64,000 bases of DNA from Candidatus Omnitrophota bacterium (GTDB taxonomy: Bacteria; Omnitrophota; Gorgyraeia; Zapsychrales; Aceulaceae). Below the pieces are notes generated by a model, which worked only from the letters and a program-made list of their open reading frames with translations, did not search any database and was not told the origin of the DNA. The stretch is taken from the NCBI GenBank assembly GCA_029564765.1, contig JAKQPK010000050.1, positions 82,977 through 146,976 of the forward strand, read 5' to 3'. Shown here one piece after another: positions 6,076 to 33,249 of the stretch. Positions within the stretch are counted from its first letter, which is position 1, and each line of letters opens with the position of its first letter. The position numbers and the translations under genes were made by a program.

Positions 6076-6247
6076 GTTGCGACTCCGTTTCTATTATAAT
6101 TTTAAATTTAGTTCCTATTATACCAAAATCATAAATTCTTTATCGAAAAATCATTGGACGACAGAAATTTAAGCAAATGATCCTGCTTAATAATAAATAC
6201 TTATTACCTACGCTTCTCGCACCTGCAAGATGCCAAGGAATTCCTTG

Positions 6248-13470: not shown

Positions 13471-13477
13471 AAATTTA

Positions 13478-13694
13478 ATTCAAAAGTCAAAATTCAAAAG
13501 TCAAAACGAAAAGATTTCAGAAGCTAAAATTCAAAAGTATGAAGATTTTTTGAGCTTAAAAACGCAACGAATGCAATGGGCTCAATGAACTAAAATTATA
13601 TCTCATTCTACGCTTTAATACACAATGTTTTGATTTTTGGTTTAATAAATCAACCTTCTGCTTTGAATTTTTATTTTTGAATCTTGACTTTAAA
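13478..13694. repeat. MITE-like intercistronic palindromic element, family 1, copy A
   Basis: The terminal inverted repeats are built from tandem units: the left end reads AAGTCAAAATTCAAAAGTCAAAA and the right end TTTTGAATCTTGACTT. The right end is identical to that of copy C. It fills the trpB-trpA gap. Confidence 0.55.
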
Positions 13695-14868
13695 TAATGT
13701 CCTTTATTGACTGCACATCCTTGTCCCCTCGCCCGGAAAGACACACGATCACGGTCGAATTCTTTTTAGCACGCTTAGCAAGTTTTTCCAAATAACCGAT
13801 CGCGTGCGAGGATTCCATCGCGGGGATAATCCCTTCGGTCTTGCACAAAAGCTTCATCCCGGCAATAGCTTCCTTGTCATCGACAGCAACATATTCCGCA
13901 CGCTTGATCTTTTTGTAATAAGAATGTTCTGGCCCAACGCCTGGATAATCCAGCCCCGCGGCGATCGAATGCGCCACCCGCACCTGGCCGTCACTATCTT
14001 GTAACAGATCGCTCTTGCTGCCATGAAGGACACCGGCTGTCCCACGATTCAACGGCGCGGAATGCTTGAGCGTATCAAGCCCTAGACCTGCCGCTTCCAC
14101 ACCGATCATCTTTACGTTCTTATCCGAGAAAAACGCGTGAAAAAGCCCCATCGAATTACTGCCGCCGCCAACGCACGCCAAAAGATAGTCCGGCAAACGT
14201 TTTTCTGCCTGCGCAAACTGCCTCTTGGCTTCTTGTCCGATCACAGATTGGAATTCACGCACCATCACGGGATAAGGATGTGGCCCAGCCACAGAACCGA
14301 TCACATAAAATGTGTTCGCCACATTCGTTACCCAATCACGGATCGCTTCGTTCATTGCGTCTTTTAAGGTCTTTGAACCGCTTGTGACAGGAACAACCCT
14401 GGCTCCTAAGAGTTTCATACGGTAAACATTCAACGATTGACGCTCAATATCTTCCGCGCCCATATAAATATCGCAGCGAAGCCCAAAAAGCGCTGCCACT
14501 GTCGCGGTCGCCACGCCATGCTGGCCGGCACCGGTCTCCGCGATGATCCGCGTCTTGCCCATACGCTTGGCGATCAGGATCTGACCTAAGGTATTGTTGA
14601 TCTTGTGGGATCCGGTATGCAAAAGATCTTCACGTTTAAGATAAACCTTGAGTGTCTTCAGTTGCGCGCTTAAGCGCTTGGCCAGATAAAGATTGGTCGG
14701 CCTGCCGGCGTATTCCTGCAAATAAAAGCGAAATTCTCGCTGGAATGCTGCGTCTTTGCGCAGGCGAACGAACACGCGCTCAAGATCCGCCAAAAGCGTC
14801 ATGAGCGTTTCTGGTACATAACGCCCGCCGAACTCATCAAAATGGCCAAATTTATCGGGTTTTGTCAT
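13690..14868 (-). CDS. trpB: tryptophan synthase beta chain
   Basis: 392 aa. PLP-Lys context (HTGSHKINN) and GGGSN motif. Confidence 0.9.
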
Positions 14869-14880
14869 ATATAGTTTAAA

Positions 14881-14954
14881 GGGTTAAAGGATTTGAGGAT
14901 TTGAGGATTAAAGGGCTCTCCCTTTTCCCCTATAATCCTTTACCCCTCTACCCC
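14881..14954. repeat. long imperfect hairpin built from tandem AAAGGATT/TGAGGATT units, family 2, minimal copy
   Basis: Left arm GGGTTAAAGGATTTGAGGATTTGAGGATTAAAGGG, loop CTCTC, and a right arm that is its reverse complement. It lies between the stop of ORF 14954..15745 and the trpB start. Confidence 0.5.
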
Positions 14955-15745
14955 TACTTTTTCTTATATTCCGTCATGATCATACTTGTGCCGCCGATCA
15001 TCGCAGGCTTGTCAATGCGCAACGGTAATCGATCTGGGCTGTCGTCGAACCAAAGCCGATATTGCGAAGGCACGGTTTCAAGAAAAAAGGTTTGAAAATC
15101 TTTACCAGCCACGGATAGTGGCATCTTTTTAGCGATCCTGACCGACACATCCTTTGTCGGTAGATTCATCCGCAAAGATGATCCTAAGCGAAAACTGCCT
15201 TTCAACCGATACCGATAAATAAAACAATAGATATTATCAATCTTATCTTCTTTGGTCAATACAAGAACCTGCGGTTGCGGCTTGGCCTTTGTTGTTTTCG
15301 TAATTGTCACCGTATGCTGATCCTGATCGTAAACTTCAACGATCTTTTCGATCGACCCAAAAATATTCAGATCTCTTTCGATGCGCAACGGAAAGAACTC
15401 CTCATGATCCGCGTAGATCTTTTCGGCGTCTAGAAAGTTCGATCCTTGAGCCTGAAAAAGGATCAGATAAGCTTCCCGCCCATCGATCGTAGTCCGGCCC
15501 TGCAATGTCATAGTCGCATCGGCCTGCTTAACGCCAAGGCCGCGCACATCATAGCGGATCGTTTCGCCGATAAAACGGCCATAGCCTGCGTCCTGGGCAA
15601 AGGCAAAACTTGGGCTAAAAAAAACCAAAAAGCAAGATATAAGGCACAAGCAGGCCAGAAAATACAACCTCCAAAGACCAAAGACTTCTCTTGGCTTGGT
15701 CATTGCTTGGTTGTTGCCTACTGTATCTTGATCATTCATTTCCAT
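14954..15745 (-). CDS. hypothetical membrane or secreted protein
   Basis: 263 aa with an N-terminal hydrophobic segment. No confident family assignment. Confidence 0.5.
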   Translation of the reverse strand: MEMNDQDTVGNNQAMTKPREVFGLWRLYFLACLCLISCFLVFFSPSFAFAQDAGYGRFIGETIRYDVRGLGVKQADATMTLQGRTTIDGREAYLILFQAQGSNFLDAEKIYADHEEFFPLRIERDLNIFGSIEKIVEVYDQDQHTVTITKTTKAKPQPQVLVLTKEDKIDNIYCFIYRYRLKGSFRLGSSLRMNLPTKDVSVRIAKKMPLSVAGKDFQTFFLETVPSQYRLWFDDSPDRLPLRIDKPAMIGGTSMIMTEYKKK

Positions 15746-16866
15746 TCTTTCACAAATCTCTCCAACACCTTTGCGCCCTTATACAGCTTCTCAACATGCG
15801 CGTATTCATCGGTCGCATGCGCGGTTTTGCGGCTGCCATAGCCTGTGGCGATCGCCGGGATCTTTTTCTTCTGGAAAAATGTGATCACAGTAGCGCCCTG
15901 ACTGCCCTTAAGCTCCACAGGACATTTGAGCGCGCGGCAGGCGTTGACATAGGTCGAAACCAGCGGATGCTGTTTATCGATCTCATAGGGGTATTGCAGG
16001 TCATCTATGATAATTTTAAAACGTTTCGCGTGTTTTCGTACCAAAGCCTTGATGGCGACCAAAAGTTTCTGCGGGTCCATACCCGGTAAAAATCTCAGGT
16101 CAAAGGAAAGCTCACAGAAATCCGCGACCATATTTACCTTGTCCCCGCCCTTGATCGTCCCAATGTTGATCGTTGGCGGACGTAAAAGCGCATGAGGGTG
16201 ATAAACAAATTTAAAGTTCTTTAATTCTTCAATAATGCCTGTGGCTGCTTCGATCGCGTTTACGCCGTACCACTTGTAAGCGCCGTGCGCTTTCTTGCCA
16301 AAAACTTGAACTCGGGCGTGCATCAAGCCTTTTTGGGCGATGATCGTTGAAAATTCATCAGAATCCAAGATCAAAGCGGCCTTCGGCTTCAGCATCCCTT
16401 TATTGAGCAACGGAACGATCCCCTGTTTGCTGCCAGTCTCCTCATCTACCGTCGCGGCCAAGACCACATCATGCGAAAGTCGAACACCGTCCTCGACTAA
16501 GCTGCGCATCGCCTCCATCGCGCAGGCGAGATTTCCTTTATCGTCCGTGGCCCCTCGACCATAAATACGGCCATTTTTAATTTGCCCGCCAAAAGGATTC
16601 ATGGACCATCCTGTACCTGCGGGAACGGTATCAATGTGCGGTGTCAACAAAAGCGCGTTCTTTGCTGACGCTTTAGATGTCCCTTTTAAAGTCGCGATAA
16701 TGTTGGGACGATCCTTCGCGAAGGTCACGACCTTGACTGCAAGGCCCAAGGAGCGCATATCACGCTCGATAAAACGTGCAAGTGCAAGTTCATTGCCCGG
16801 CGGATTCTCTGAATTAAACCGCAGAACTTTTTGGGTCAACTTAATAAGGCGAGATTTGTTGATCAT
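15736..16866 (-). CDS. M20-family metallopeptidase (ArgE/DapE-like deacylase)
   Basis: 376 aa. It has conserved metal-binding His and Asp residues and the GRGATDDKG motif typical of M20 peptidases. Confidence 0.8.
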   Translation of the reverse strand: MINKSRLIKLTQKVLRFNSENPPGNELALARFIERDMRSLGLAVKVVTFAKDRPNIIATLKGTSKASAKNALLLTPHIDTVPAGTGWSMNPFGGQIKNGRIYGRGATDDKGNLACAMEAMRSLVEDGVRLSHDVVLAATVDEETGSKQGIVPLLNKGMLKPKAALILDSDEFSTIIAQKGLMHARVQVFGKKAHGAYKWYGVNAIEAATGIIEELKNFKFVYHPHALLRPPTINIGTIKGGDKVNMVADFCELSFDLRFLPGMDPQKLLVAIKALVRKHAKRFKIIIDDLQYPYEIDKQHPLVSTYVNACRALKCPVELKGSQGATVITFFQKKKIPAIATGYGSRKTAHATDEYAHVEKLYKGAKVLERFVKEWK

Positions 16867-16867
16867 G

Positions 16868-17138
16868 ATAAGTCAAAATTCAAAAGTCAAAAGTTTAGGA
16901 TTGAACAACAAAAATCAAAACTCAAAAATTTAAGATTAAAATCAGAATGCAAAAACTAAAACAACGGTACCAGAATTCATGCTGATAGCTAAAAAATTTT
17001 TTATAGGATTTCTTGAATATACTTGCCTGATTCTTTTTATTTCAGGGTTCTTGATATGCTGTACTTTTAATTTTTGACTTTAAAAAATCAGCCCTGTGGT
17101 CTTTAATTTTGACCTTTGAATTTTGAATCTTGACTTAT
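16868..17138. repeat. MITE-like intercistronic palindromic element, family 1, copy C
   Basis: About 26-bp TIRs: ATAAGTCAAAATTCAAAAGTCAAAAGT on the left and the reverse complement of ATAAGTCAAGATTCAAAATTCAAAGG on the right. It exactly fills the gap between the stop codon of ORF 17139..17444 and the start codon of the M20 gene. Confidence 0.6.
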
Positions 17139-17444
17139 CTAGTCCTTAAATAAATCCTCAGCCCGCAAAGCGCCCGTGGCTTTCTTATAGTCATCATAAT
17201 CTAGAACGCACATGCCTGGATTTTGCTCAATGATCCTGATGATCTTTGGCATATTACCTATCAAGCTGCGAAAGGTGATATATTTAAACGGTGTTTTACA
17301 TTCCGGGCAGACGGTAGAATCAAGCTTTAAGCCCATAGCATTACACTTAGAGCAATTGGCGGTCAGATCGCCGCACAAAAGCGCGTGGCTTTTGACCTCT
17401 TCCACATAAAATTTTTTATAAATTCTAATCACTTTATCGTTCAT
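17139..17444 (-). CDS. small zinc-ribbon protein (two CxxC pairs)
   Basis: 101 aa with CSKC…CPEC. No known family. Confidence 0.5.
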   Translation of the reverse strand: MNDKVIRIYKKFYVEEVKSHALLCGDLTANCSKCNAMGLKLDSTVCPECKTPFKYITFRSLIGNMPKIIRIIEQNPGMCVLDYDDYKKATGALRAEDLFKD

Positions 17445-17476
17445 AGATGAAAAATTATAACATAAAATATATTAAG

Positions 17477-17612
17477 TTGTAAGCTGTAAGTTATAAGTTG
17501 TCCGTTGCCAGCAAAAAGGGCCCCGCAGAAATCCTGCGGGGCCCTTCTCACACCCCTATCATTGACATCTTACATCTGACACCTTACATCTTATGCCTTC
17601 TATATCTTACAA
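17477..17612. repeat. palindromic element built from tandem GTAAG/CTTAC units that flank a central terminator hairpin
   Basis: Left arm TTGTAAGCTGTAAGTTATAAGTTGT. Right arm CATCTTACATCTGACACCTTACATCTTA…CTTACAAC, which overlaps the stop of the giant gene. Confidence 0.45.
17511..17544 (-). terminator. rho-independent terminator of the giant gene
   Basis: On the minus strand an 11-bp GC-rich stem (GGGCCCCGCAG/CTGCGGGGCCC) with a 5-nt loop is followed by TTTTTGC. It lies about 65 nt after the stop at 17607. Confidence 0.7.
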
Positions 17613-20600
17613 CAAGCCCACCTGCGCGTACTCCTCGGCAGGCAAAGCAGGTTCTGCGGGCCGGCCGATAAGTTCTCGATTATCAGAGCCTCTCACCTTG
17701 TTGCTGGGCGTTCCCGCATCCAAGCCGGAGAGCAAAAACAAACTCGCCACAGGCGTGATACCCATGATCTCAAAGGTAAAGCCTTGAATATTCATCAGCT
17801 CTGGCGGCTGCTGCGATATCGGCAAAGGAATTCCGTTTCCGTCACGCTTGATCTGCAGATCCAGCGTCTTAGAATCCATGCTGATACCGCCGAGGTTGGA
17901 GGAAGATTTTCTTTGTTTTTCCAAAACAAAATTATAAATATCCCCAATATTAACCTCATCATACTCTTGTATCTCCATGGACTCCTTAGGAATGATCTGA
18001 GCATGGTTCGGAAGAAGCCGCGAATTAATATCCACGATCATGCGAGCGATCTCGACTGAAGTCATCTTTAAATCATCTCTTAGCTTTGTCGCCAACGTGA
18101 CATTATCTGTTTTTACAACAGAGAATTGTTTTATGATACTAATAACATTTTCAAGCATCTTATCGCTCGTGGTTATAGTTTTTAAAAGAAAATCTAAGCT
18201 TGTTATGCTTCGATGCTGATTCAATCCTGCGATCCGAAATTCTTTTCGTATTGAATTAGGGTGGCTCACACGAACTGTCATTAGGCCAGAGATGTTCTGA
18301 TAAAATAAAACATGGGCCTGCTCGTGATCATCCTGCTTACTATTATAGAACACCAAAAGAACACCATTGACATCCTTGTTGATGTTATCTTCATCTGTGA
18401 TCTGTGTTAACTCGTCTTTAAATGAATCGAGGTCGGCATACTCGTCAATGACGTTCTCATTCTTGTCTGGAACCAATTTTACCAACTCATACCCTTCTTC
18501 CCTCGCAAGGTCAACCATATGATCAATAACGGCAAAAAAGTCTTTCCTGGTCAAGCTCGACGACACAACTTCAAGCTTTTCTTTGATCTTAACTTCAACA
18601 TCTTCTTGCCGCTCCCCTCTGTTTCGAACCAAAAAGCCTTTGTCGCCTTCGCCTTGCTCTGTTTTTCTAACGGCTATCGAAACACCTTTTTCGGTATCAG
18701 TCAAGATAACGACATTCAGCTCTTTTCCCTCTTGCGCATCAAAGGTAAACAAAAGAGAATTGTCCATAGGAGAGTCCGTATCCACCAAATTTTGATGAAA
18801 GATATCCGAACCGTCAAGATCGTAATCCAACCCGTTCCACAAAAAAGACTCGACTTTTTCGCCCATTACATCCTCAACTGCCATGACAGCATCGAGAATG
18901 CTTGCCGTGGGCAAAGACTTGATGATCGTCGACTGAACTCCGTCAAAAGCGAAAGGACTTGTACTTTTCTCGCTCGACCCTGAAGACGTTGTGACTGCGT
19001 CCATAGCCTTAAGCACGGAAAGAGCCTGGGCCAAAAATTTCTGATCGGGAATATTGAGCTCGTCGCCTAAATCCATAGCCTGGTATGCGTCAACGACCAC
19101 AGAACCATTTTCAAGCTTAAATCTAAGGACATCGCCCCAAACGCGATCATTATAGTGAAATTGCAGGCTTATCTGACGCGTCTTAGGATTTCTAAACGTC
19201 ACACGCTGCGCGTCCATAGCGCTGAGGTTGCCCGACGATCCGCCATCAATATCAACATAATTAAAGCTGACTCTGTCAGCACTAATCTCTTTTTGCAAAG
19301 TATTGGCAAGCTCTTCAATTGAGAAATTCTCCGGAAGAACAGCCTTGACGCCCGATGAAGCACCGATAGGGGCTTTCTTGCTCAGGCTAGAGGAACTTGC
19401 TGTTTTCAAAAAGTTGTCCTCTGAGAGCTCAGAAAGAACAGCCGCCACCTGATCCTTAAGCCTGAGGTCTATGGTCTCGATTTTGACGACCTTTCCCTGC
19501 TGAACTAAAAAATGAATATTGCCCATATTTTTATTCAGTTCGCTAGAAATGGAAAAATCAACAGCTTCAGGATCACTGGTCCTGGAAGCAGCATAATCAA
19601 ATTGTCGAGCAACGGCATAATAGCCGATCTTAAAATCAAGCGTTCGCAGGCCAATCTTTTCGCCTAATTTCTCAAGGAATACGCGCAAATCATTACTGAT
19701 CTCTGTTAATTTAAAATCCTTGATGTTTCTTTTTCCTGTGCTCGATTCGCTTTTGACAATTTCTTCGTTATTCTCTATCTTCACCGTTGATGAGAAATTC
19801 TCCGATAAAAACCTCCCGAGATCCGGGACAATTGTTTGCTTAGCGAGCTCCAGAAGTTCAAGATCTTCATTCGGCGTTGCGCCATAAACAGGGGCTGACT
19901 TTGCCCTGATCTCAACACTGCCATCTGGCTGACGCTCAAAGCTTACGACCCAATAAGGTTTAAATCGTTCATATGTCTTCGTAAACTTTATTGTTATTAA
20001 CCCGTTAAAACCACCAAAATTACCCTCGCCTAGTCGTGGGCTGTATATAATCTCGTCTGTTCCCAGATAGTTCTCAATAGTATTAGAAAAATCTCTAAAT
20101 AAATCTTCGATAACGTCCGAAGCCTTCTGACTCATGGCGGTTGGTGTTTCATCAAGCGGCTCGCTCCTTGCCATTGACAAAAAATGTCCCGCAGGAAGAT
20201 TTTGGCGGATCCGGTCGATATCCTCTTGACCTGCGCCAAGAGTTGCAAATCCAGGCCGGACGCCAACAACTTCCCCTCTCTCAAGATCAATCACGACTCT
20301 ATTGGCTGTCCACAAGATTTCAATAGATTGCATGTCTGATTTCTCCTGAACCAAGCCATCTAAAGCATGAGCAACTTCTTCTCTGCTTTCACGGATCTGT
20401 TTGGTGGAGTAAAAATAATAAAAGCTTACCCCATCAAAAATATTTACTGCGCGCAACTCCCTGACACCCAGCTGATCAAGAAATTCAAGGAGCTGATGTC
20501 TGAATTCTCCTGGCATTAATTCGCTTAATTTAGCCGGCGCTGTCGCCTGCGGCGCATCAACAACCCCAGGCTCCTGACTCATGGACTTTAAGATATCTGT

Positions 20601-23600
20601 TGCCAGACGTAACAAGCCTTCGTCATGATTCATTTCACCAGCGGAATTCTGAAATTCTGCTTCTATCTCAATCATCTCGTCCTCAACCTGACGAAGCACG
20701 ATCATATAAGATACATTCTTCGCAGGTTTATGCATAGCCCTATAATCCATCTTATTTTGAGATGAAAAGGAAAATATCACATTTTTTCTCCAGTCAAAAT
20801 CGAGACCGGTGTCGATCAAAAGCTTGCCCTTTGTAGCATCTAGGATTCGCTTAGAAAATTCCTGAACATCAAATTTTGCCCCTTTGAAGCTCACCCTTTC
20901 TTTACGCGAAACGATATCCGCATCATACGGGATCTCTGTCTCGGGCTTAGACGTTTCGGATTTAACTTCTGCCCTCTTTTCTTCTGGAGCGGTGGACAAA
21001 AAGTTTTCGGCTGACAATATATATCGCTGCAGAACCGCTTTCTCATGTTCACGAAATTTTTTATCAAACACCGAAACTTCAGTGACTTTCCGCGTAAATT
21101 CCTCAAAGCTGACAATGATTCTAAAATCCTCTATCTCGAATTGCATAGTGCTTATCGTATCTCCAAAACGCTCCCGAAACGCATCTACAGCATCCGCTAT
21201 CTGAGCTCCGAGCAAAGCATTGTAAGAACGAAAACTATTATTGAAATTACGAATTTCTATAGTTTGCAGCTTTGCATTCCGGTCGAATACCGAAAGAAGC
21301 TCTTTGACATCGCGCTGAATCTTTGCGGAACCTGATGGCAAAAATCCTCTTTTTGCTGACGCTGTTTTGCTCACCTCCGAAACAACAGGTTTTTCCTCCA
21401 GATACCTTTCTAACCCTAAAGTTCGCTGTGCCGGTTCCCCAGAAGGAACACCATCAATATACGTTACAGCTGGCACCTCTTTTTTCTCCAGCGCGGTAGA
21501 AAAAACATTTTCTGATGATAATTTTGAACGGTCAAATCCCGGCAGGCGCATTCCCTGCTTATCTTTTACATGAACATGAATAATTTGTTGCGTGCTCTTG
21601 CTTACAGAGATCTCGATCGAATAAGTCCTAAAAGTAAGCACGATCCCTTCAAGCTTTTGAGTAACAAGCATGCTAAATTTTTCTTTAAATCGATCTATGG
21701 CATCTTTTAGTTTCAACTTGTTGGCATCATAAAGCATGGCAGGGTTAAAAATCTTTATAGTTTCCATCTTTTCTTCGCGCCCGATGATCGAGATGATCTC
21801 CTCAACATCTCGCTGGATCTTTGCAGAATCTGACGGCCAATATCCTCTTTTTTCTGAAACTACCGATTTAACTTCCGCAGCTTTCGGTGTCACGCTAACA
21901 ACAGGATCGCGATAAGAAAGATCCTTGCTCACCAGATAAATATAACTTCCATCTTGAAACCTGATCTGATACGCGAGAGGCTTGCCAGGCCTAGAAAGCC
22001 ACTGATCGATCTTATCTTTCTCAAGAATAGAATGTTGTTCGATATCGATAAAAACTGCCTTTTCTCTGGCAGATAGATCCTTGATCTTTTGTACAGCTCT
22101 TTCTTTTGAGAAATTAGCAGAGATCTGGTCAACGGCTTGCCAATTTTTTTCTTGAGATCCTGACACGACCTTAAGGTAGCTTTCTCGGTCACGCGATGAA
22201 CCCAGGCGAAAATTTCTTTTATCCATAAGGATCGGCGCTATGCGCGCGGCAACTGTTTCTGTTTGCGAAAAAGTCGTTCGCACTTTGTTCGCATCAATGA
22301 TCGCGCGCTTACCCTCATAGCGGACGTTGAGATAATAAGAAGTGCCATTTCCCAATTCTAACCTGATTGATGCTACTGGTTCACGAAGATCAAGGTCTTG
22401 CCATGGGGCTTTTGGATTTGTCACACTGACTCTTTGATATCCGCCAGAACGCAATTTAACGCCCATCGTGCCAACGTCTGATCTTTCATCCTGCATAATA
22501 CGCGTGATCGGGCTGATCAGCTGCTGGCGTGTGATCACACTTGAAGACGCGCTAGAAGTAGGCATCTTTTCAATGATCTCTTTCGCTTTGCGCGCGATAT
22601 TATCCTCTGAAACAGCATCAAAATTCTGCTTTTTGTCATTCCATACAAAGCGTAATGCTGTGATCGATAAGAAAAGGTCATATTGATCGATCATAATTTG
22701 AGTTAAAGGTGAATTTCTGTTTTGTTCCCAGAATTTTACAATCAACCTCTGTCCTGATCCCAAATTCTTTTCACTAAAGAATTCGGTAAACCCAGGCTCA
22801 TGCTCAAGATAAGAACTATCGTTCCATTCCACAGACCATGTCTTGTGTGGGATCCCCTTCCTGAGCGCCATGATCGCTTCATGCGCGTTCAGCGTTCCCG
22901 CAGCACGTTTGATTACTGCAAGGGATGAGGACATTCTCTTATGCTTAGATTTTTGATCATAAGATCGATACATTTTTCCATTCTCGCTTAAGCGCAAGAA
23001 AATCTGTCCATTCTGATCGAATGCATGCATCGTAACCGGCAACTCTGTTTCTGACCATCCATAATAATAATCCCGAAAGTCTAAGCCGTAGTACTCTTTC
23101 TCGCTTTCAGACAGTTGCTGTGATTCTGCATGCCAAACCGCGGTAATAAACGGTTTGATGTTTCCATCCTGGTCAGTTCCGGAGATAAAATAAGGATCCG
23201 CCTGATACTCTTTGATAAGCACAGCGGCAACTTCTCGACCAGTGGTAGCTGGGATCGAAGCCAGCGTAGAAGAAACCGACTGAGTCGGGGCTACCAACAA
23301 ATCTGTCCCGCTTCCGTCAATATCAACTCCTACATAAACAATCGTCACATTATCAAGGATCAAATGCCCATCGCTGCCACGCTTGAGAATACCTTTGTCA
23401 AAATAATGCTGATATTTCGCCTTTGATAGAAGCTCATCCAGGTTAATTTCTTGATCCGTATCGTTACGCAACTCAACCGTTCCAATGTATTCTGGTTTGT
23501 TCAGAGTCCACTTCCCTGCCACATAAAGAAGATCCAGATCCAGCGTTTTTGAACCCAGCGGGAGAATTTTGTAAGCGTTCACCTTGTTTTTCTGATAGTA

Positions 23601-26600
23601 ATCTTCGTAATTTTTGGAAAATTCGAATCGCGCCAAGTGGCCTGGCTTATTATTTTTCATAGCCCATTCTTTAGTATCCATGGCAAAATGCTCGGATAAA
23701 TAATAATTCCAATCCAAAGCAAACTTAACTGGCGTAAAGCATAGCTCACGATACTCAGGTGTAAAATTCACGATGTGCAGCAAGCGCGTCCATCCATACT
23801 TTTTCATCAGGTCTTTTACCTTCTGATTTTCTGTATAGCGCACATGATAATCGAGATTCTGAAGAACATGGCCCAAGGCGCCTTCGATCTGATAGATCGT
23901 CCCGCCCTCTTTTGGATTATCAATGAAGGTTGGCGATGTCCACTGTACATACTGTTCATGTCCAATGATCTTTTCCAGTTCACGCAAAAATGGCTGAAGC
24001 ACAGTTTCGTTAATGCCCATAATGTTGGTATTAAAGAACTGTTCACCTTCCTGGCCTGCTTCCTCGATCGCGCCAGCAGTGAGGCCGATCTTTTGAAAGA
24101 GCTCGCCCTGGCCAACCTTGCCAGCCTGGACAGTTTCCATCATATTGATACGGGTATTCTCAGCAGTAAGATCCTGCAGCAAAAGGCCATCCTCGACAGG
24201 CTGAGCACCAACCTTCCCACCTTTTTTATCTAATTCCATGGTTGTCGATGATAAAAGAACCATGGGGATCTTGTTGGACGCCATCCAGCCTAAAACAACA
24301 GATGGGATTTGATTGTTTGGACCGTCCCCATTAGTAATATCGCGGATCACCACTTTGTCTTCTGGTAAAATGTCAGTAAGAACTTCTTCAAAAGCCATTC
24401 GTCCAAAAACACCGTGTCCGCCTGGAGAAGTTTTGCGATCGGTCAACTCTCCGGTTACCACATCCACAACAGGCTGGATCGCCTGAACGACCATATCTTC
24501 ATCGAATCTAATGCCTTGCAACCCTCTGACGTATTGAGCATAAGTGCGCTTTTGGCCTTCGGGGATACGATCATCGATCTTATCAAGAAGGCAAATGTGT
24601 TGATTGCGAAAATCTGAAATAGGACCGACCGTATCTTTACTGACAAGCTCACGAATGCTGGCGTGCGCAACACGGCCTTCTTGAGCGGTAATGATGTTGT
24701 GGACATATTTCACATCTAAAATACTGAACTCCACATCCTTGAAAACCTTAGGGTTGCCATCCTTATCAAACCCTTGAAGTTCTTGGACAAACGTCAAGGC
24801 CATGGATTTCGCCCCGACTCCTCCCACAGAAGTCCCTGCTCCGCCGTTCATAAAATCAATGCGATGGTCAACATTCTTAGCAGCCTCAAGATACTTCTTC
24901 TCCTGCGATAAGATCTCTGTTGCGAAATCCGTCGCGTTCATGATCTCTTTCATTTTTGACTTAGGGATCATAGAATTTGGGAAGAAATTCTGGCCGATCA
25001 CCAGATCATTCACGATCCCTTTTTGCTTATCGACCATTTGCTGATTATATTGAGAAACGAGACTTGCGAAATAATCTCTGTTAAAAGTGCTGCCAGGATT
25101 ATCCATGCCTAATTTTTTGACAAACGGATCGATCTCTTCTTTTGAAATGGTACGAATGCTCGAAGACACAGCTTCTTCTTTGTCTTCTGCCAGCGGCATC
25201 CCCTGTGACACGAACTCCCAGAAATCCGCTTTTTTGGCTCGATGAAGAACAACATAGCCATCACGGATAAACATCTTTACCGTCAAAGGTTCTCTGGCGT
25301 CTTGCGGTATAGAAGCAATCTTTTCAGCCATGAGACTTTTACTGTTAGGCCTATAAAACTCTGTTTGCTTGATATCGTCGCTTGTTAACCTTAGAGCCAT
25401 ATTTTCCGCGACGATCTCTGTTGCCATTTCTTTTAAATCCACATTGGCGCGAAACTTAGGGACATTGATGGAACCGCCCAGCTCATTCCATCTGGCTCCT
25501 TCATCCTTAAAATTAAATCCTTGACCGTAAAACTGCGTTATCTTCCATCGGCTATTTGCTGTGTCTTTGGCAAAGATCAAAGAAGTTCTGTCTTTAAAGA
25601 ACATCGTAACCTTCTTGGCTTTTGGCAAAATAACGCTTAGACGGCCTGAAGCCTGCGGGTCGCTCAAAGAAAATCCGTAGGAATATCCTTCCTCTGTGAG
25701 AATATTGAAACTTAAAAGCACTTTCCCTGTCAACTCGAGCTTGGACGTGATCTCGCGTAAAAGAACAGATGCTGGCTCTAAAGACGATACCCTTGAGATG
25801 ATCGCCGAGGCGGAAACGCCTGTTCCCCACTTTACCTCTATATTCCATCTATTACGGTCGATGCGCGTAAGTACTATTTGTTTATTCCCGTTTTCATCAT
25901 AATAAACTTTAATTCTCGCAACTTTCCTTTCTGGCTTATCATCTAAGAAAGTGCTCTGCATCTCAGACCTGTGTCTGCCACTCCACCCCCCAGTATCGTA
26001 TTCTGCATAAACATAAACATAATCACCGCCATATTGTCGAGCGATTGCTTCCAATGCACTCCATCCTGCATCATGCCCGGGAGCTTCTATCGCCGAGGCG
26101 GAGGATCTGTTATCATCTTCACTTTTCAATAGCTTAGCATCAAATCTCGTTGCACTTCCCTTTGTTTGCAATTTATCTGCGGATGGAGTGACCTTTTCTA
26201 GAGCCTGACGCAAAGGGGTCCCGTCAGGAGTAGTTGGCGTGAAACCGCCAGAAAAATACTTGCGGGGAATGTTCTTTCCCGTATGCTGATCCCTCTCAAC
26301 CTTGATAAAATCATAGATGCCTTTTTGAAAAGCATTCAAATAATCCTCGTAGATCTTTTGCTTTTCAGAGCTATCCACAAGATCAATGCCTTTTATCTTA
26401 TTCTGATCCATGTAGATCTTGCCAAGCAAGCTTTCCTTTAGATTGTTCTTATACCAAGTGGCCAGGATCATCGCGTAATAGACCTGCCTTAGGCTCGCAA
26501 AATGCTTTCCGAAGTTCACTTCTTTTTCGATGGCCGGAAGAACAATTTCACGGACGATCTGAGAAGAAAGAGAACTGGTCGTTAGTATTTGGTCGCTAGT

Positions 26601-27326
26601 ATTTAGTGGTTGGTTTTTACTAGATACTACATACTCTCGACTATCGACTCGTTGCTTTGCTTGCAAAGCAACGTAATCTTCTTCCATCACGACGGCCAAT
26701 TCGCTGTCAACAACAAAAACCCTATTGTTGTTCTCGTAAACTGTTGCTTTTTTAGGAAGGATCCAGATCTTGTTGAACGTGTCGATCGGGATGTCGGTAG
26801 TTCCGTATTTCTCGTAAGCTGCCTTGTAAACCTTTTCCCAGAACTTTTTGCCAAGCTCGTCTTCCGGGTATATTAAGGAAGCAGTAAGCTGCTTTAAGAT
26901 ATAATCCTGAGCTAAAAGATCTCGACCCATCTGGGTCTGACCAAAGCCTTCCGGGATAATACGATCTTTTTCATAAGGCGAAAGGTTGACCCACATGTCT
27001 TTTTCAGGAGTTGTCAAGGAGGCTAAAAAGTAGCGGATCAGCTTCTTGGCTTCTTCGGTCAAGGCCTCGCCTTCCATGGCTGTATCACCGCTATCTACGA
27101 TAAACCCAAAATGAAAAGGATTACCGGGGTCAATCTCGATCGCTCGTAACAAAACAGGATAAAAACTTGCTGTTGGCGCAAGCATCGTGCTTGGCGCCGA
27201 AAGCCCTGCAGATAGGCCCTGGGCGTAGCTGGGAGCAATAGAGGTAAAAAGAAAGCTGAGAGTGATAAGAACAGAGATGATCTTTGACGCGAATCTTCTT
27301 TGGGCTTTGTTACCGCAGGCGATCAT
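17607..27326 (-). CDS. giant secreted multidomain protein (3239 aa) with an internal UDPGP-family nucleotidyltransferase domain
   Basis: One uninterrupted ORF with an AAGGAG SD 8 nt upstream. The N-terminus is a Sec signal peptide (…SFLFTSIAPSYA/QG). The internal motifs MNGGAGTSVG, SPGGHG and ITNGDGPNN match UDP-glucose pyrophosphorylase hallmarks. The rest has no assignable domains. Confidence 0.85.
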   Translation of the reverse strand: MIACGNKAQRRFASKIISVLITLSFLFTSIAPSYAQGLSAGLSAPSTMLAPTASFYPVLLRAIEIDPGNPFHFGFIVDSGDTAMEGEALTEEAKKLIRYFLASLTTPEKDMWVNLSPYEKDRIIPEGFGQTQMGRDLLAQDYILKQLTASLIYPEDELGKKFWEKVYKAAYEKYGTTDIPIDTFNKIWILPKKATVYENNNRVFVVDSELAVVMEEDYVALQAKQRVDSREYVVSSKNQPLNTSDQILTTSSLSSQIVREIVLPAIEKEVNFGKHFASLRQVYYAMILATWYKNNLKESLLGKIYMDQNKIKGIDLVDSSEKQKIYEDYLNAFQKGIYDFIKVERDQHTGKNIPRKYFSGGFTPTTPDGTPLRQALEKVTPSADKLQTKGSATRFDAKLLKSEDDNRSSASAIEAPGHDAGWSALEAIARQYGGDYVYVYAEYDTGGWSGRHRSEMQSTFLDDKPERKVARIKVYYDENGNKQIVLTRIDRNRWNIEVKWGTGVSASAIISRVSSLEPASVLLREITSKLELTGKVLLSFNILTEEGYSYGFSLSDPQASGRLSVILPKAKKVTMFFKDRTSLIFAKDTANSRWKITQFYGQGFNFKDEGARWNELGGSINVPKFRANVDLKEMATEIVAENMALRLTSDDIKQTEFYRPNSKSLMAEKIASIPQDAREPLTVKMFIRDGYVVLHRAKKADFWEFVSQGMPLAEDKEEAVSSSIRTISKEEIDPFVKKLGMDNPGSTFNRDYFASLVSQYNQQMVDKQKGIVNDLVIGQNFFPNSMIPKSKMKEIMNATDFATEILSQEKKYLEAAKNVDHRIDFMNGGAGTSVGGVGAKSMALTFVQELQGFDKDGNPKVFKDVEFSILDVKYVHNIITAQEGRVAHASIRELVSKDTVGPISDFRNQHICLLDKIDDRIPEGQKRTYAQYVRGLQGIRFDEDMVVQAIQPVVDVVTGELTDRKTSPGGHGVFGRMAFEEVLTDILPEDKVVIRDITNGDGPNNQIPSVVLGWMASNKIPMVLLSSTTMELDKKGGKVGAQPVEDGLLLQDLTAENTRINMMETVQAGKVGQGELFQKIGLTAGAIEEAGQEGEQFFNTNIMGINETVLQPFLRELEKIIGHEQYVQWTSPTFIDNPKEGGTIYQIEGALGHVLQNLDYHVRYTENQKVKDLMKKYGWTRLLHIVNFTPEYRELCFTPVKFALDWNYYLSEHFAMDTKEWAMKNNKPGHLARFEFSKNYEDYYQKNKVNAYKILPLGSKTLDLDLLYVAGKWTLNKPEYIGTVELRNDTDQEINLDELLSKAKYQHYFDKGILKRGSDGHLILDNVTIVYVGVDIDGSGTDLLVAPTQSVSSTLASIPATTGREVAAVLIKEYQADPYFISGTDQDGNIKPFITAVWHAESQQLSESEKEYYGLDFRDYYYGWSETELPVTMHAFDQNGQIFLRLSENGKMYRSYDQKSKHKRMSSSLAVIKRAAGTLNAHEAIMALRKGIPHKTWSVEWNDSSYLEHEPGFTEFFSEKNLGSGQRLIVKFWEQNRNSPLTQIMIDQYDLFLSITALRFVWNDKKQNFDAVSEDNIARKAKEIIEKMPTSSASSSVITRQQLISPITRIMQDERSDVGTMGVKLRSGGYQRVSVTNPKAPWQDLDLREPVASIRLELGNGTSYYLNVRYEGKRAIIDANKVRTTFSQTETVAARIAPILMDKRNFRLGSSRDRESYLKVVSGSQEKNWQAVDQISANFSKERAVQKIKDLSAREKAVFIDIEQHSILEKDKIDQWLSRPGKPLAYQIRFQDGSYIYLVSKDLSYRDPVVSVTPKAAEVKSVVSEKRGYWPSDSAKIQRDVEEIISIIGREEKMETIKIFNPAMLYDANKLKLKDAIDRFKEKFSMLVTQKLEGIVLTFRTYSIEISVSKSTQQIIHVHVKDKQGMRLPGFDRSKLSSENVFSTALEKKEVPAVTYIDGVPSGEPAQRTLGLERYLEEKPVVSEVSKTASAKRGFLPSGSAKIQRDVKELLSVFDRNAKLQTIEIRNFNNSFRSYNALLGAQIADAVDAFRERFGDTISTMQFEIEDFRIIVSFEEFTRKVTEVSVFDKKFREHEKAVLQRYILSAENFLSTAPEEKRAEVKSETSKPETEIPYDADIVSRKERVSFKGAKFDVQEFSKRILDATKGKLLIDTGLDFDWRKNVIFSFSSQNKMDYRAMHKPAKNVSYMIVLRQVEDEMIEIEAEFQNSAGEMNHDEGLLRLATDILKSMSQEPGVVDAPQATAPAKLSELMPGEFRHQLLEFLDQLGVRELRAVNIFDGVSFYYFYSTKQIRESREEVAHALDGLVQEKSDMQSIEILWTANRVVIDLERGEVVGVRPGFATLGAGQEDIDRIRQNLPAGHFLSMARSEPLDETPTAMSQKASDVIEDLFRDFSNTIENYLGTDEIIYSPRLGEGNFGGFNGLITIKFTKTYERFKPYWVVSFERQPDGSVEIRAKSAPVYGATPNEDLELLELAKQTIVPDLGRFLSENFSSTVKIENNEEIVKSESSTGKRNIKDFKLTEISNDLRVFLEKLGEKIGLRTLDFKIGYYAVARQFDYAASRTSDPEAVDFSISSELNKNMGNIHFLVQQGKVVKIETIDLRLKDQVAAVLSELSEDNFLKTASSSSLSKKAPIGASSGVKAVLPENFSIEELANTLQKEISADRVSFNYVDIDGGSSGNLSAMDAQRVTFRNPKTRQISLQFHYNDRVWGDVLRFKLENGSVVVDAYQAMDLGDELNIPDQKFLAQALSVLKAMDAVTTSSGSSEKSTSPFAFDGVQSTIIKSLPTASILDAVMAVEDVMGEKVESFLWNGLDYDLDGSDIFHQNLVDTDSPMDNSLLFTFDAQEGKELNVVILTDTEKGVSIAVRKTEQGEGDKGFLVRNRGERQEDVEVKIKEKLEVVSSSLTRKDFFAVIDHMVDLAREEGYELVKLVPDKNENVIDEYADLDSFKDELTQITDEDNINKDVNGVLLVFYNSKQDDHEQAHVLFYQNISGLMTVRVSHPNSIRKEFRIAGLNQHRSITSLDFLLKTITTSDKMLENVISIIKQFSVVKTDNVTLATKLRDDLKMTSVEIARMIVDINSRLLPNHAQIIPKESMEIQEYDEVNIGDIYNFVLEKQRKSSSNLGGISMDSKTLDLQIKRDGNGIPLPISQQPPELMNIQGFTFEIMGITPVASLFLLSGLDAGTPSNKVRGSDNRELIGRPAEPALPAEEYAQVGLL
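20900..21860 (-). repeat. two tandem ~160-aa intragenic repeats inside the giant gene
   Basis: Repeat 1 reads …KRGYWPSDSAKIQRDVEEIISII… and repeat 2 reads …KRGFLPSGSAKIQRDVKELLSVF…. The DNA copies are about 480 nt apart. Confidence 0.6.
23400..24880 (-). other. UDP-sugar pyrophosphorylase-like (UDPGP, PF01704-type) domain inside the giant protein
   Basis: These motifs correspond to the LNGGLGTSMG, PPGHGD and NIDNLGA motifs of eukaryotic-type UGPase. The domain is encoded at roughly aa 810-1300 of the giant protein. Confidence 0.6.
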
Positions 27327-27480
27327 GAAACTTCTCCTTTTTTAACAACTTGTTAGGATAAAAATTGGTCAATATACGTACTCAAAGGCTAAAAGAGCAA
27401 GCCTTAAACCTTTTTTCCGTGGCAGGAATTTAGAACAAAATTAGATAAGAAAGCGGTTTCTTTTGGGAAAATATAGCACA

Positions 27481-27921
27481 TTTTTATAAATTTTCAAGGT
27501 CAGCTTATGTACGGGAGGGCTTGCGGACCTCTATCAAAGAAAGGAGTGCTTTTAAATGATCACGACTTACGAAGGCCTTGGCCGAGATCAAATCAGCCCA
27601 CGCGAATTTATTCCGCCAAAAGCGGAGGCACGAAATCAGGATAATCGTATTAGTATTTTTGGACTCCTCACAAAAAGATTGCTCGGAGTGTTTTTTCTTG
27701 GCTAAGTTAAAATAAGAAGGAAGAAAAAATAAGAAAGAGCCGACAAAGTATGTCCACTTCGGCAACCCAGCCACCGTCTTGTCATCCACTGCGGCCCAAC
27801 CGGCCCTTGAGGTAGCCCCAGCACCACTCCGGGTGCGGGACGCAAGCTGCTTCAGACAACTTAGGTCTGTGGTTTTGCGCCCCCGGGTTTCCCCGGGTTT
27901 GCCTTTATCGGCTCATTTGAG
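27481..27921. other. unexplained structured non-coding segment flanked by 11-bp direct repeats (AATATAGCACA); candidate ncRNA, long leader or small insertion
   Basis: The direct repeats lie at 27469-27479 and 27922-27932. A second repeat, GAAAGCGGTTTC, occurs at 27450 and 27970. The segment contains GC-rich hairpins (CCCGGGTTTCCCCGGG, GGCCCAACCGGCC). The only in-frame material is a 49-codon plus-strand ORF (27555-27701) preceded by an AAGGAG motif and a spurious 94-aa minus-strand ORF. Confidence 0.25.
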
Positions 27922-27990
27922 AATATAGCACAGAAAAGATCGATAACAAGGGGTGAAAAGGGGCTTCGGGAAAGCGGTTTCAAAATATGA

Positions 27991-28191
27991 AAAAAGGATT
28001 AAAGGATTAGAGGGCTAAAGAGTTAGAAAGGTAAAAACTTTAAGGAGAAACCAAAATACGAAAATTATAAAAACAAAGTTTCCGCTTAAAGTTTAAGCCG
28101 ATGATTCTCAATTCTTTTTTTCTTGCTATTTTCAAATCTCCTAAAGCCCTTTAACCCTTCAATCCTCTAACCCTTTAATCCTAAAACTTTA
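27991..28191. repeat. palindromic element, family 2, long copy (arms of AAAGGATT/AGAGGGCT units flanking a ~90-nt core)
   Basis: Left arm AAAAAGGATTAAAGGATTAGAGGGCTAAAGAGTTAGAAAGG. Right arm CCTAAAGCCCTTTAACCCTTCAATCCTCTAACCCTTTAATCCT, which is its reverse complement. The right arm overlaps the last codons of the exonuclease gene. Confidence 0.5.
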
Positions 28192-28849
28192 AATAATTCT
28201 CCCAATACAAGTACAGCTCTTTGGTTGCCTGTAGGTCACGCGCGCAATACCTCGCAATGTCATGGAATGCGCCTTTGAGAAAAAACTCTTTAACTTGCAG
28301 TCCTGTGATCCCCTCTTCTTTGGGGCTTTTGATACCGAAGGCTTTGCACCACATGTCCAAGCTGAAGCGGCGACGCATCGCATCATAAAAGGTCAACTGA
28401 TCGCAAAGGTCAACATGCAGCTTCGCGTCATAGCGATACGGCACAAGATTCTTGGTCGCGCGAACATTGTTGATGGCTGAGCGCAACATGATAAAAGGAC
28501 AATCGAAGGTTCGTCCATTAAAAGTGATAAAAACATTGGCCTTTTCGATCAATTTCCAAAAATGCATCAGGATCTCTTTTTCATCCCCGGAAACATAAGT
28601 GATGTCCCCTTCCTGGAATTTTTCTTTCTTGCCATCATTCTGGAAGAAGACAAAACTCTTATTCGTCTCCACGTCCAGCATGCCGATCGTGATCACTTGG
28701 GCTGTCACAGGGTAGAAGCTCATACTATTTTTTACATCCTCGATCTTCTGCTCGCTGTCAGCGAACTTCAAGAAATATTCTTTTGAGACCTCATCCAAGC
28801 TGTCAAAATCCTGCCCTGCAGTTTCAATGTCAAAAACGATCTTAGACAT
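28181..28849 (-). CDS. RNase H-like superfamily 3'-5' exonuclease (DEDD/PolB-exonuclease-like, YprB-type)
   Basis: 222 aa. The N-terminal IVFDIETAG motif is an Exo I-like motif, and …YCARD… near the C-terminus looks like an Exo III motif. Confidence 0.65.
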   Translation of the reverse strand: MSKIVFDIETAGQDFDSLDEVSKEYFLKFADSEQKIEDVKNSMSFYPVTAQVITIGMLDVETNKSFVFFQNDGKKEKFQEGDITYVSGDEKEILMHFWKLIEKANVFITFNGRTFDCPFIMLRSAINNVRATKNLVPYRYDAKLHVDLCDQLTFYDAMRRRFSLDMWCKAFGIKSPKEEGITGLQVKEFFLKGAFHDIARYCARDLQATKELYLYWENYLKF

Positions 28850-28876
28850 AAAAGCTCCTTAATAAAGATTTGGAAT

Positions 28877-29003
28877 GCAAATAAAATGACTCAATGACCA
28901 AGCTCGAATGTCGAATCAATATCTCAAATCCTAATATTTCAATTGGGCATTGAATCATTGGGGTTTCATTCGTCATTAGGATTTCGTCATTGGTCATTGC
29001 GCT
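28877..29003. repeat. palindromic element, family 3 (arms of AATGAC/CAATGA units)
   Basis: Left arm AATGACTCAATGACCAAGCTCGAATGTCGAATCAAT. Right arm CATTCGTCATTAGGATTTCGTCATTGGTCATTG. It lies between the trpF stop and the exonuclease start. Confidence 0.45.
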
Positions 29004-31986: not shown

Positions 31987-33249
31987 TCACACTTTTTTCC
32001 TTGAGATCTTTGCGCCAATGTTCAAAAGTTTTTTCTCGAGGTCCTCATACCCACGCTCCAGATGATAGATGCGGTGGATCTCCGTCAGGCCTTTCGCGGT
32101 CAAACCAGCAATGACAAGAGCGGCCGATGCTCTGAGATCTGAAGCCATAACCGGGGCTCCGTGTAAGGTTTTGACACCCTGAACGATCGCATGTAAGCCT
32201 TCCCGGCGGATATTAGCCCCCATACGGTCAAGCTCAGCAATATGCATGAACCGATCAGGATAGACACGGTCTGTGATAACGCTCACGCCGGGTGTCGTTG
32301 CCATCAAAGCCATGAATTGGGCTTGGAGGTCTGTTGGAAATCCTGGATAAGGATACGTATTGATACTGGCCGGGGTTATGGTCCGGCGATTGATCACGCG
32401 GATCACATCATCAGTATACTCAAAGCGGACCCCTATGGACTCTAAGACATCGATCAATGACAACAAATGCCCATGATACGCGTCACGGATCGTCAAGTCG
32501 CTGCGCGTGGCTACGGACATCAGTATGAAGGTCCCTGCTTCGATACGATCCGCAATAATGCTATGATCTGCCCCTAAAAGTTCCTTAACCCCGCGGATAA
32601 TAATGCGCGGTGTTCCATGCCCGATCACATGAGCACCCATGCGCACTAAAAAATTTCCTAGATCCTCGATCTCAGGCTCGCAGGCTGCTGATTCGATGAT
32701 CGTCTCACCATTGGCCAGAACAGCCGCCATCATTACATTGGCCGTTGCCAGGACTGATGACCCAAAGACCCCTCCTAAATAAATACGCGCTCCCCGCAGG
32801 CGCTTAGCTTTAGCGACAATATATCCCGCGTCCGTTGTCATCTCAGCGCCTAAAGCCTTTAAGCCTTTGACATGAAGGTCAACAGGGCGAATACCGATCA
32901 CGCAGCCTCCGGGCAAAGAAACACGGGCCCGGCGAAGTTTACCTAAAAGAGGCCCTAAGACACAAAACGATCCTCGCATGGTGGACACTAGATCATACGG
33001 CGCAGTATCTTTGATCGGCCCTTTCCCCAAGACAACAAGTTTTCCTTTTTCATAACGCGTGACCTTACCTAAAGACTCCAGAAGCTTGATCATGGTCAAT
33101 GTGTCACGCAATTTGGGCACATTATGGATCGTGCACGGCTGATCCGTTAAAAGGGTGGCCGCCATAATAGGCAGAGCCGAATTCTTTGCCCCGCTGATAC
33201 GAACTTCCCCAGATAAACGTCTTCCCCCTTCGATCACAAGCTTATCCAT
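31987..33249 (-). CDS. murA: UDP-N-acetylglucosamine 1-carboxyvinyltransferase
   Basis: 420 aa with a typical MurA/EPT fold sequence. Confidence 0.9.

Follow-up and report, generated by a model that had tools for sequence, protein, structure and literature searches.

A 64,000-nt stretch of the genome of a Candidatus Omnitrophota bacterium (assembly GCA_029564765.1, contig JAKQPK010000050.1, positions 82,977 to 146,976), hereafter called the window, carries six palindromes, E1 to E6, located at gene junctions of the trp genes and of an accessory block lying among them. We consider it probable that these palindromes are gene-less members of an insertion-element class of the type known from the intervening sequences (IVS) of 23S rRNA genes, with inverted arrays of 7-9-nt units as their ends. 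The evidence comprises their architecture and its statistical significance, the sharing of unit families between junctions, the lack of conservation at the same junctions in relatives, the link of the same layout to PF05635 genes, and the gene-less miniatures found beside such genes. In an element of this class, a variable core would lie between two ends in inverted orientation, both of them short and degenerate arrays of tandem 7-9-nt units; the full-length form would carry a promoterless PF05635 gene, and the miniatures would lack it. Such elements would settle in the few bases between co-directional genes, often supplying or abutting the upstream stop codon and ending just before the next start codon, and their unit families would spread within a genome, one replacing another over time. 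Given their position within operons, the elements are presumably transcribed into RNA that would fold into a long stem, which, by analogy with the 23S rRNA IVS, is a likely RNase III substrate at which polycistronic mRNA would be cut at the junctions.

Architecture of the six palindromes

Each of the six elements occupies the gap between two minus-strand genes, extends from the upstream stop codon to 0-14 nt before the next start codon, and has a GC content of 0.26-0.40. Cores of 30-220 nt lie between AT-rich tandem arrays, in which Tandem Repeats Finder and autocorrelation resolve 2-5 imperfect head-to-tail units per arm. E1 (13471-13689, on the minus strand like the other five) is a 219-nt palindrome that fills the gap from the trpB stop to the trpA start and lies outside the start coordinate given in a preliminary description of this DNA; its arms (13478-13513 and 13661-13691) are composed of TCAAAAG/TCAAAAT units with a period of 7 and form an inverted repeat of 31 nt (81%). 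E3 (16867-17138), a 272-nt palindrome spanning from the stop codon of a gene encoding a 101-aa protein to the ATG of an M20 peptidase gene, belongs to the E1 family (arms at 16867-16894 and 17100-17139; inverted repeats of 28 nt, 89%, and 20 nt, 95%), and the two elements have in common an arm string of 23-27 nt, together with some core similarity. E2 and E5 form a second family, in which the likeness is confined to the arms. E2 (14869-14953), an 85-nt palindrome between the DUF3108 gene and trpB, has arms of AAAGGRTT units with a period of 8 (14877-14914 and 14929-14955), and the TAG stop codon of the upstream gene belongs to its first arm unit. E5 (about 27985-28190) is a nearly continuous 206-nt hairpin downstream of an exonuclease gene, with arms of the E2 unit family at 27993-28025 and 28148-28182 (inverted repeat of 31 nt, 84%). 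E4 (17445-17606) lies between a giant gene encoding 3239 aa and the 101-aa gene, and its heptamer arms of the GTAAG/CTTAC type (17473-17501 and 17563-17593) enclose a GC-rich hairpin (about 17513-17549) that is the intrinsic terminator of the giant gene. E6 (28850-28993) is a degenerate palindrome between trpF and the exonuclease gene, with arms (about 28884-28922 and 28946-28999) of AATGAC/GTCATT units, a unit family that also forms the arms around a PF05635 gene in relatives. No further element was found in the 10 kb that adjoin the window at its low end.

To assess arm complementarity, the left half of each element was aligned to the reverse complement of its right half and compared with 200 dinucleotide shuffles. 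The resulting z values were 3.9, 3.9, 6.7, 6.4, 6.2, and 3.3 for E1 to E6, respectively, and the observed score was attained by at most 2 of the 200 shuffles for any element, whereas seven other intergenic regions of the window, used as controls, gave z values from -1.3 to 0.7. The arm period is 7 in E1, E3, E4, and E6, and 8 in E2 and E5, with a self-match of 0.65-0.86 that is lower in E6. E6 is the weakest of the six, with a self-match of 0.57, which does not exceed that of the shuffles, and an RNA fold z of -1.6; on the gene strand, the corresponding fold values are -2.0 (E1), -3.5 (E2), -3.5 (E3), -7.1 (E4, largely because of the terminator hairpin), and -6.7 (E5). Chance self-complementarity of low-complexity, AT-rich intergenic DNA would agree with the base composition of the elements and with the weak fold values of E1 and E6; however, the dinucleotide shuffles reject it, the seven control regions are negative, and a complement-only control fails likewise, which leaves this explanation with practically no credibility. 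The observation of tandem-unit palindromes is thus confirmed as real, and of the intergenic regions in the window, these six are the only ones with such arms.

The preliminary description had placed the six elements to within a few bases of the coordinates found here, and its account of a constant layout of inverted tandem-unit arms (found in six of six elements), of the grouping by shared arm sequences (E1 with E3, E2 with E5), and of their location between genes of the accessory block or the trp set was borne out; its unit length of 6-10 nt is corrected to 7-8 nt. It was also right to set the elements apart from CRISPR arrays, which consist of 23-50-nt direct repeats with unique spacers of similar length, whereas the units described here are contiguous, 7-8 nt long, and arranged in inverted arms.

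Turnover at the same junctions in related genomes

We compared the junctions with those of four relatives, L123, L125, L127, and L129, whose TrpA proteins are 81%, 78%, 72%, and 70% identical to that of the window, respectively. The gene order, including the accessory block within the trp genes, is kept in the relatives with TrpA identity of 72-81%, and the spacers between the genes differ. At the trpB to trpA junction, the 219-nt element of the TCAAAAG family in the window corresponds to 91 nt of non-repeat sequence in L123, a single nucleotide in L125, and a 307-nt palindrome of AATGAC units in L127. Between the 101-aa gene and the M20 gene, the window has its 272-nt element of the TCAAAAG family and L123 a 143-nt hairpin of CTAAA/TTTAG units (fold z -3.65), while in L127 and L129 AATGAC arms enclose a PF05635 gene; the L125 contig ends there. 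The junction between the giant gene and the 101-aa gene carries E4 with its GTAAG/CTTAC arms in the window, an E4 ortholog in L127, and an element of the TCAAAAK family in L129, and the L123 locus begins at the terminator, which is followed by a palindrome of the CTAAA family.

Identical arm strings recur at different places. The 16-nt string AAGTCAAGATTCAAAA of the E1 and E3 arms is found without change in L129, at the junction between the giant gene and the 101-aa gene, and strings of 17-31 nt from E6 are present in elements at three other L127 junctions and in a cassette arm of L129. As unit families are common to several junctions within a genome and differ at one junction between genomes, the sequence comparison indicates dispersal of unit families between junctions, with replacement, rather than a conserved RNA. 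Gain, loss, and replacement would then take place on the time scale separating these Omnitrophota species. At the DUF3108/trpB junction, the two genes overlap by 17 nt in L125 (1560-1650) and L127 (8470-8560). They are split in the window (14850-14960) and in L123, where about 10 nt (TATGAAAAAA) stand on both sides; in the window, the left copy reads TATAAGAAAAAG and the right copy TATGACAAAAC, and the C-terminus of the DUF3108 protein is shortened (..EYKKK*). Judged from these sequences, the duplication would fit an insertion with target duplication.

The same comparisons bear on the proposal, contained in the preliminary description, that a long imperfect RNA hairpin is under selection. Read in this way, the elements would be cis-acting RNA hairpins serving as operon processing or stabilizing sites, attenuators, insulators, or stop-start devices for translational coupling. 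Enterobacterial repetitive intergenic consensus (ERIC) and repetitive extragenic palindromic (REP) elements do influence mRNA stability. The palindromes occupy exactly the interval between a stop and a start codon; a Shine-Dalgarno sequence is missing beside the ATG of trpA, trpB, and the M20 gene but present in other genes of the window; the base of the E3 stem sets AAGGAC-TAG directly against the ATG; and an E4 arm supplies a -35-like box. Against such a role, the elements are not conserved: the corresponding junctions of relatives lack them or hold other families, with 1 nt between trpB and trpA in L125, overlapping genes elsewhere, and unrelated sequences in other relatives. Arm mismatches on the transcribed strand show no surplus of G·U over A·C, with counts of 18 and 10, respectively, in the window and of 76 and 94 in 60 PF05635 cassettes, and most mismatches are of other, transversion-type kinds. 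The inverted symmetry therefore appears to belong to the element ends as DNA and not to be kept up as an RNA structure. Nor did the covariation check proposed in the preliminary description favor selection across the arms: in the E4 ortholog of L127, compensatory changes keep the pairing of the inner terminator hairpin, whereas divergence of the outer left arm has left it with poor pairing. No element matched an Rfam family, either at gathering thresholds on the whole window or at permissive thresholds on both element regions; E5 resembles only generic models of long-hairpin miRNA precursors, far under threshold. Taken together, these data make selected RNA hairpins an improbable explanation. 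A split Shine-Dalgarno arrangement, in which the stem would bring a Shine-Dalgarno sequence of the upstream gene back to its usual distance from the ATG, is plausible for E3, but E1 leaves about 24 nt outside its stem, for which reason it was dropped as a general explanation. The other possibility raised in the preliminary description, a common generating mechanism, fared better, as the six elements represent one tandem-unit inverted-repeat class that also occurs around PF05635 genes and in other phyla.

PF05635 cassettes, gene-less miniatures, and rival origins

The link to PF05635 starts from the junction between the 101-aa gene and the M20 gene. In L127, an 87-aa ORF of the PF05635 family ('23S_rRNA_IVP') lies at 5924-6187 inside AATGAC-unit arms; it is now a pseudogene, which a stop codon divides into two fragments. 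L129 carries an intact 132-aa PF05635 gene at this junction, and its product has matches to PDB 2RLD (E 2e-14) and to TIGR02436 ('four helix bundle protein', E 1e-19). PF05635 genes begin inside AATGA units, in which the first codons of the L129 gene (MSNDLMSNEN) are written. We then examined 80 metagenomic loci encoding relatives of the L129 protein (61-92% identity), 70 of which had enough flanking sequence. Inverted arms across the PF05635 gene were detected at z>3 in 61 of the 70 loci and at z>5 in 53, and the median alignment score of the flanks was 39, compared with 18 for shuffles and 20 for a complement-only control. A score of at least 30 was reached by 78% of the PF05635 genes and by 8% of the other ORFs of at least 120 aa in those loci (median 18). 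The upstream arm has a period of 7 in 27 loci and of 9 in 26, with units that include TTTCTAA, AATTGACCT, and AATGACG. The cassettes have same-strand neighbors (39/42 upstream, 40/46 downstream), and the gaps around the PF05635 genes (median 46 and 78 nt) are occupied by the arms. Gene-less miniatures with the same arms and loops of 33-84 nt stand beside gene-bearing copies in these loci, and in some of them the non-repeat inner part of the arms is still that of the gene-bearing copies. Cassettes of this kind are also found outside the sample, in unrelated phyla: in the Bacteroidales locus L022, a PF05635 gene lies exactly between TTTTGAA x3 and TTCAAAA x5, and in Flavobacterium (L080) and Chitinophagales (L033), PF05635 genes lie within inverted tandem-unit arms whose units differ each time.

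Two further features of the cassettes were observed. About 180 nt of sequence that is rich in GC, seems structured, and has no Rfam match come after the PF05635 gene of L127 (5837-6301 and 6390-6572). In L155 and L156, a small GC-rich palindrome (CCTGCCTGCCGGCAGGCAGG and variants) occurs within or beside the cassette arms, which suggests a second, REP-like element targeting these regions.

The spread of the E1/E3 units was examined in a scan of GTDB genomes for TCAAAAK x3, which gave at least 120 loci; among the matches listed, most are from Nostocales and other Cyanobacteria, Bacteroidota, and Patescibacteria. For about 22 of the 119 arrays among these matches, a partner that agrees with the reverse complement at 17 or more of 20 bases lies within 600 nt, compared with one in the complement-only control; examples are hairpins of 65 nt that follow genes and nested arrays in which several unit types occur. 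In about 840 kb of GTDB loci, only 5 PF05635 genes were found near TCAAAAK arrays, one of them (that of L022) exactly between arms, and we do not claim enrichment.

Some of the nested multi-unit palindromes are far more elaborate than the window elements. They occur in Chitinophagaceae (L004, 6470-7010), Aerosakkonema (L008, 4820-5050), and Oscillatoria (L066, 5390-5690), with, for example, TCAAAAG arms around about 18 copies of TACTTTT or layers of GGGGACA, TCAAAAG, and CCAATGC. In Stigonema, two near-identical 173-nt TCAAAAG-armed elements (L073, 119-291, and L074, 1552-1724) lie in opposite orientation on one 2.7-Mb contig, a pattern that is like that of MITEs (miniature inverted-repeat transposable elements).

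Two explanations of these data dispense with an IVS-type element. According to the first, the palindromes arise locally and without mobility: polymerase slippage would expand heptamer or octamer repeats in AT-rich spacers, intrastrand template switching (quasipalindrome correction) would make the inverted partner, and the likeness within families would result from the repeated emergence of similar units. Heptamer repeats are an over-represented class of long simple-sequence repeats in bacteria, according to work cited in PMC4692102 and PMC4679880. This over-representation would suit a local origin, as would the different unit numbers among Coxiella strains, the mostly unpaired state of TCAAAAK arrays elsewhere, and the unlike order of unit variants between the two arms of many cassettes; in addition, the window and L123 seem to share one ancestral DUF3108/trpB split, yet their spacers differ. 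Local emergence is harder to reconcile with arm strings of 16-27 nt that recur unchanged at different junctions of one genome and in genomes whose TrpA identity is only 70%, with the cargo specificity of the arms (78% of PF05635 genes vs. 8% of other ORFs), or with the inner non-repeat arm segment of gene-bearing copies being kept in miniatures, and we regard it as rather unlikely.

According to the second, the palindromes are ordinary MITEs or REPINs moved in trans by a transposase (DDE, or Y1 of the REP-associated tyrosine transposase, RAYT, type) encoded elsewhere, and the PF05635 gene is a frequent passenger. This explanation is favored by the small size and intergenic location of the elements, by their terminal inverted repeats, by the presence of several families in a genome, and by the gene-less derivatives, and GTAG occurs within the E2 arm, as in GTAG-tagged REPs (PMC3733652). 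The opposing evidence is that no transposase is present among the Pfam-scanned or database-annotated genes of about 74 kb (a set that omits about a dozen window ORFs located beyond 49 kb), that target-site duplication is not consistent, that PF05635 is the only gene found within such arms at dozens of independent loci, and that the ends are unit arrays and not one defined terminal repeat. Movement by a conventional transposase therefore has, in our estimation, only a slim chance of being correct. REP/REPIN elements proper, defined by a GC-rich palindrome of 20-40 nt with a GTAG or CGTC tag and by RAYT, were rejected as candidates, because the arms are AT-rich arrays, GTAG is present only in E2, and no RAYT was seen in the sequence read.

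Several results weigh against the IVS-type reading preferred here. Neither a transposase nor a recombinase was found among the genes scanned, and there is no clear target-site duplication; whatever mechanism split the overlapping genes, selection would favor the duplication of about 10 nt at DUF3108/trpB. Only two copies per unit family are seen within the approximately 74 kb of genome read. No PF05635 gene or remnant was detected in the window or in the element cores with a hidden Markov model built from about 73 proteins (filters off, six frames), so that the link for E1 to E5 rests on shared architecture, E6 being the only window element that shares unit sequences with PF05635 cassettes. 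About 80% of the TCAAAAK arrays among the matches listed are unpaired direct repeats, and this majority means that tandem arrays can exist without a palindrome. Finally, contig pairs in which the gain of an element might have been caught were 99.99-100% identical and hence uninformative.

Relation to known systems, gene setting, and further observations

The closest parallels to the window elements are offered by rRNA IVS. The IVS of Coxiella burnetii 23S rRNA has terminal inverted repeats that form a 28-bp stem, the 5' arm of which contains 2-4 tandem GACAGAT heptamers in a strain-dependent number; the loop holds a decaying S23p (PF05635) gene, and the stem is cut by RNase III (PMC4990558). 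Present or past mobility of IVS has been proposed in older work (cited in PMC4990558). In rRNA genes of the candidate phyla radiation (CPR), inserts encoding 23S_rRNA_IVP are accompanied by many short gene-less inserts at IVS sites (PMC11270868). The IVS of Coxiella, Leptospira, Salmonella, and CPR bacteria thus resemble the elements studied here in their inverted ends closing a long stem, in an optional PF05635/S23p loop gene that tends to decay, and in the existence of short gene-less forms. Tandem heptamer units in the arm, a feature of the Coxiella IVS, correspond to the period of 7 or 8 found in all six window elements, weakly in E6. The distribution of IVS is sporadic, which has been attributed to horizontal transfer. 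The two groups differ in location, as IVS sit in helices of 23S (or 16S) rRNA and the window elements between protein-coding genes of operons, and in cargo, as none of the six contains a PF05635 gene, although the orthologous junction in L127 and L129 has one. RNase III cuts the stem of rRNA IVS; for the window elements, we infer gain by insertion, transcription, cleavage by RNase III, and any role of the PF05635 protein.

Similar repeats have been described in other contexts. Paired inverted heptamer arrays are already reported in Xanthomonas, where GGGAATC arrays form 70-75 convergent (inverted) pairs per genome, are intergenic, and vary in length between species (PMC4692102). Like these arrays and the short tandemly repeated repetitive (STRR) sequences of cyanobacteria, the window elements consist of intergenic head-to-tail 7-nt units, often in two inverted arrays of a length that varies among related species, and many TCAAAAK matches fall in the Nostocales; in contrast, the Xanthomonas and STRR repeats were reported as simple-sequence or G-quadruplex motifs, not tied to gene cargo or IVS, and the window units are AT-rich and degenerate. 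Arrays of TAACTGA heptamers that end a few bases before start codons are found in Beggiatoaceae, Cyanobacteria, and Bacteroidetes (PMC4679880). These also stop just short of start codons and show a similarly patchy spread across phyla, but nearly all of them are direct (169 direct sets vs. one inverted), whereas the window arrays form inverted pairs.

The palindromes resemble MITE, ERIC, and REPIN elements in being small non-coding sequences of transcribed intergenic regions that come in several families within one genome and that originate from a larger partner or are moved by it. Like MITEs, the window elements are small, have terminal inverted repeats, and contain no transposase gene. A target-site duplication of about 10 nt is seen at DUF3108/trpB only, with nothing consistent at other copies or at PF05635 cassettes. 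An autonomous partner was not found: PF05635 is the only gene between such ends, and the scanned window proteins contain no transposase domain. The window elements further differ in having ends of tandem units and, as the sole cargo of the class, a four-helix-bundle protein without known enzymatic activity. Integron attC sites are likewise imperfect palindromes at cassette boundaries, conserved in structure rather than in sequence, and their cassettes are co-directional and promoterless; however, the arms of the present class are tandem-unit arrays flanking the gene on both sides. An attC origin was rejected, as the element ends (AGTCAAG.., ATAAGTC.., GGGTAGA..) are unlike RYYYAAC/GTTRRRY and no integrase domain was found in the scanned proteins.

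In our literature search, which was incomplete in coverage, we found neither a description of PF05635 genes with tandem-unit inverted repeats outside rRNA nor a work joining heptamer arrays, PF05635 ends, and rRNA IVS, and an earlier description is possible. What may be new is to regard rRNA IVS, gene-less palindromes, and the PF05635 cassettes located between operon genes as a single class of element. The same tandem-unit inverted layout is present around PF05635 genes, in miniatures, and in published rRNA IVS, and it ties together, in a testable manner, three old questions that are usually treated apart: the origin of rRNA IVS, the function of the PF05635/TIGR02436 family, and the meaning of bacterial heptamer repeats. 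A bolder version of this idea, which we put forward tentatively and consider doubtful as a whole, is that PF05635 cassettes, gene-less miniatures, and classical rRNA IVS constitute one widespread, unnamed selfish class, that the PF05635 pentamer recognizes 3-5 end units as a mobility or processing factor, and that many STRR-type arrays are footprints of the class. If so, the class would colonize any transcribed site that tolerates a hairpin, such as operon junctions and the tips of rRNA helices, in hosts that include Omnitrophota, CPR bacteria, Bacteroidota, Cyanobacteria, and Proteobacteria.

As for the gene setting, the minus strand carries nearly all window genes, in the order aroA, a trpG-like gene, trpD, trpC, trpF, a 3'-5' exonuclease-like gene, a c-di-GMP-I-GGC riboswitch, the 3239-aa ORF, the 101-aa ORF, the M20 peptidase gene, the DUF3108 gene, trpB, and trpA. 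The ORF upstream of the trpG-like gene (31987-33249) encodes EPSP synthase (aroA) and not TrpE, and trpE is not present among the trp genes of the window. No tRNA or tmRNA was found in a scan of the window, which also contains no rRNA genes. The riboswitch (27757-27912, minus strand; 61.7 bits against a gathering score of 59) is located about 430 nt upstream of the giant gene (17607-27326), which has no Pfam domain and is conserved in relatives; its product, under c-di-GMP control, probably has a surface or adhesion role. The exonuclease gene (28181-28849, minus strand), which encodes a standalone PolB-type 3'-5' exonuclease domain (PF10108), lies between trpF and the riboswitch, with E6 and E5 on its two sides, and may itself have been inserted into the operon recently.

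For genome annotation, the elements account for recurrent 80-300-nt 'junk' spacers in compact operons of Omnitrophota and CPR bacteria, and caution is advisable with adjacent stop codons, start codons, and N-termini, which may derive from elements. At the junction between the M20 and DUF3108 genes, a stretch read from the sequence without statistics (15700-15745, minus strand) is a possible remnant of a one-armed AATGA array, now annotated as the 5' end of the DUF3108 ORF. The first approximately 14 annotated DUF3108 codons (MNDQDTVGNNQAMT) resemble arm-derived sequence, and at the same junction in relatives there are one-armed AATGA arrays of 60-170 nt (L123, 1831-2000; L127, 7704-7763). The 101-aa gene is preceded by a TG-extended TATAAT box (17454-17483, minus strand) that ends 9 nt before the ATG, without a Shine-Dalgarno sequence, and its transcript may be nearly leaderless. 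The E4 arm unit CTTACA doubles as the -35-like box of this promoter, and the TATAAT region is conserved in L123, L127, and L129.

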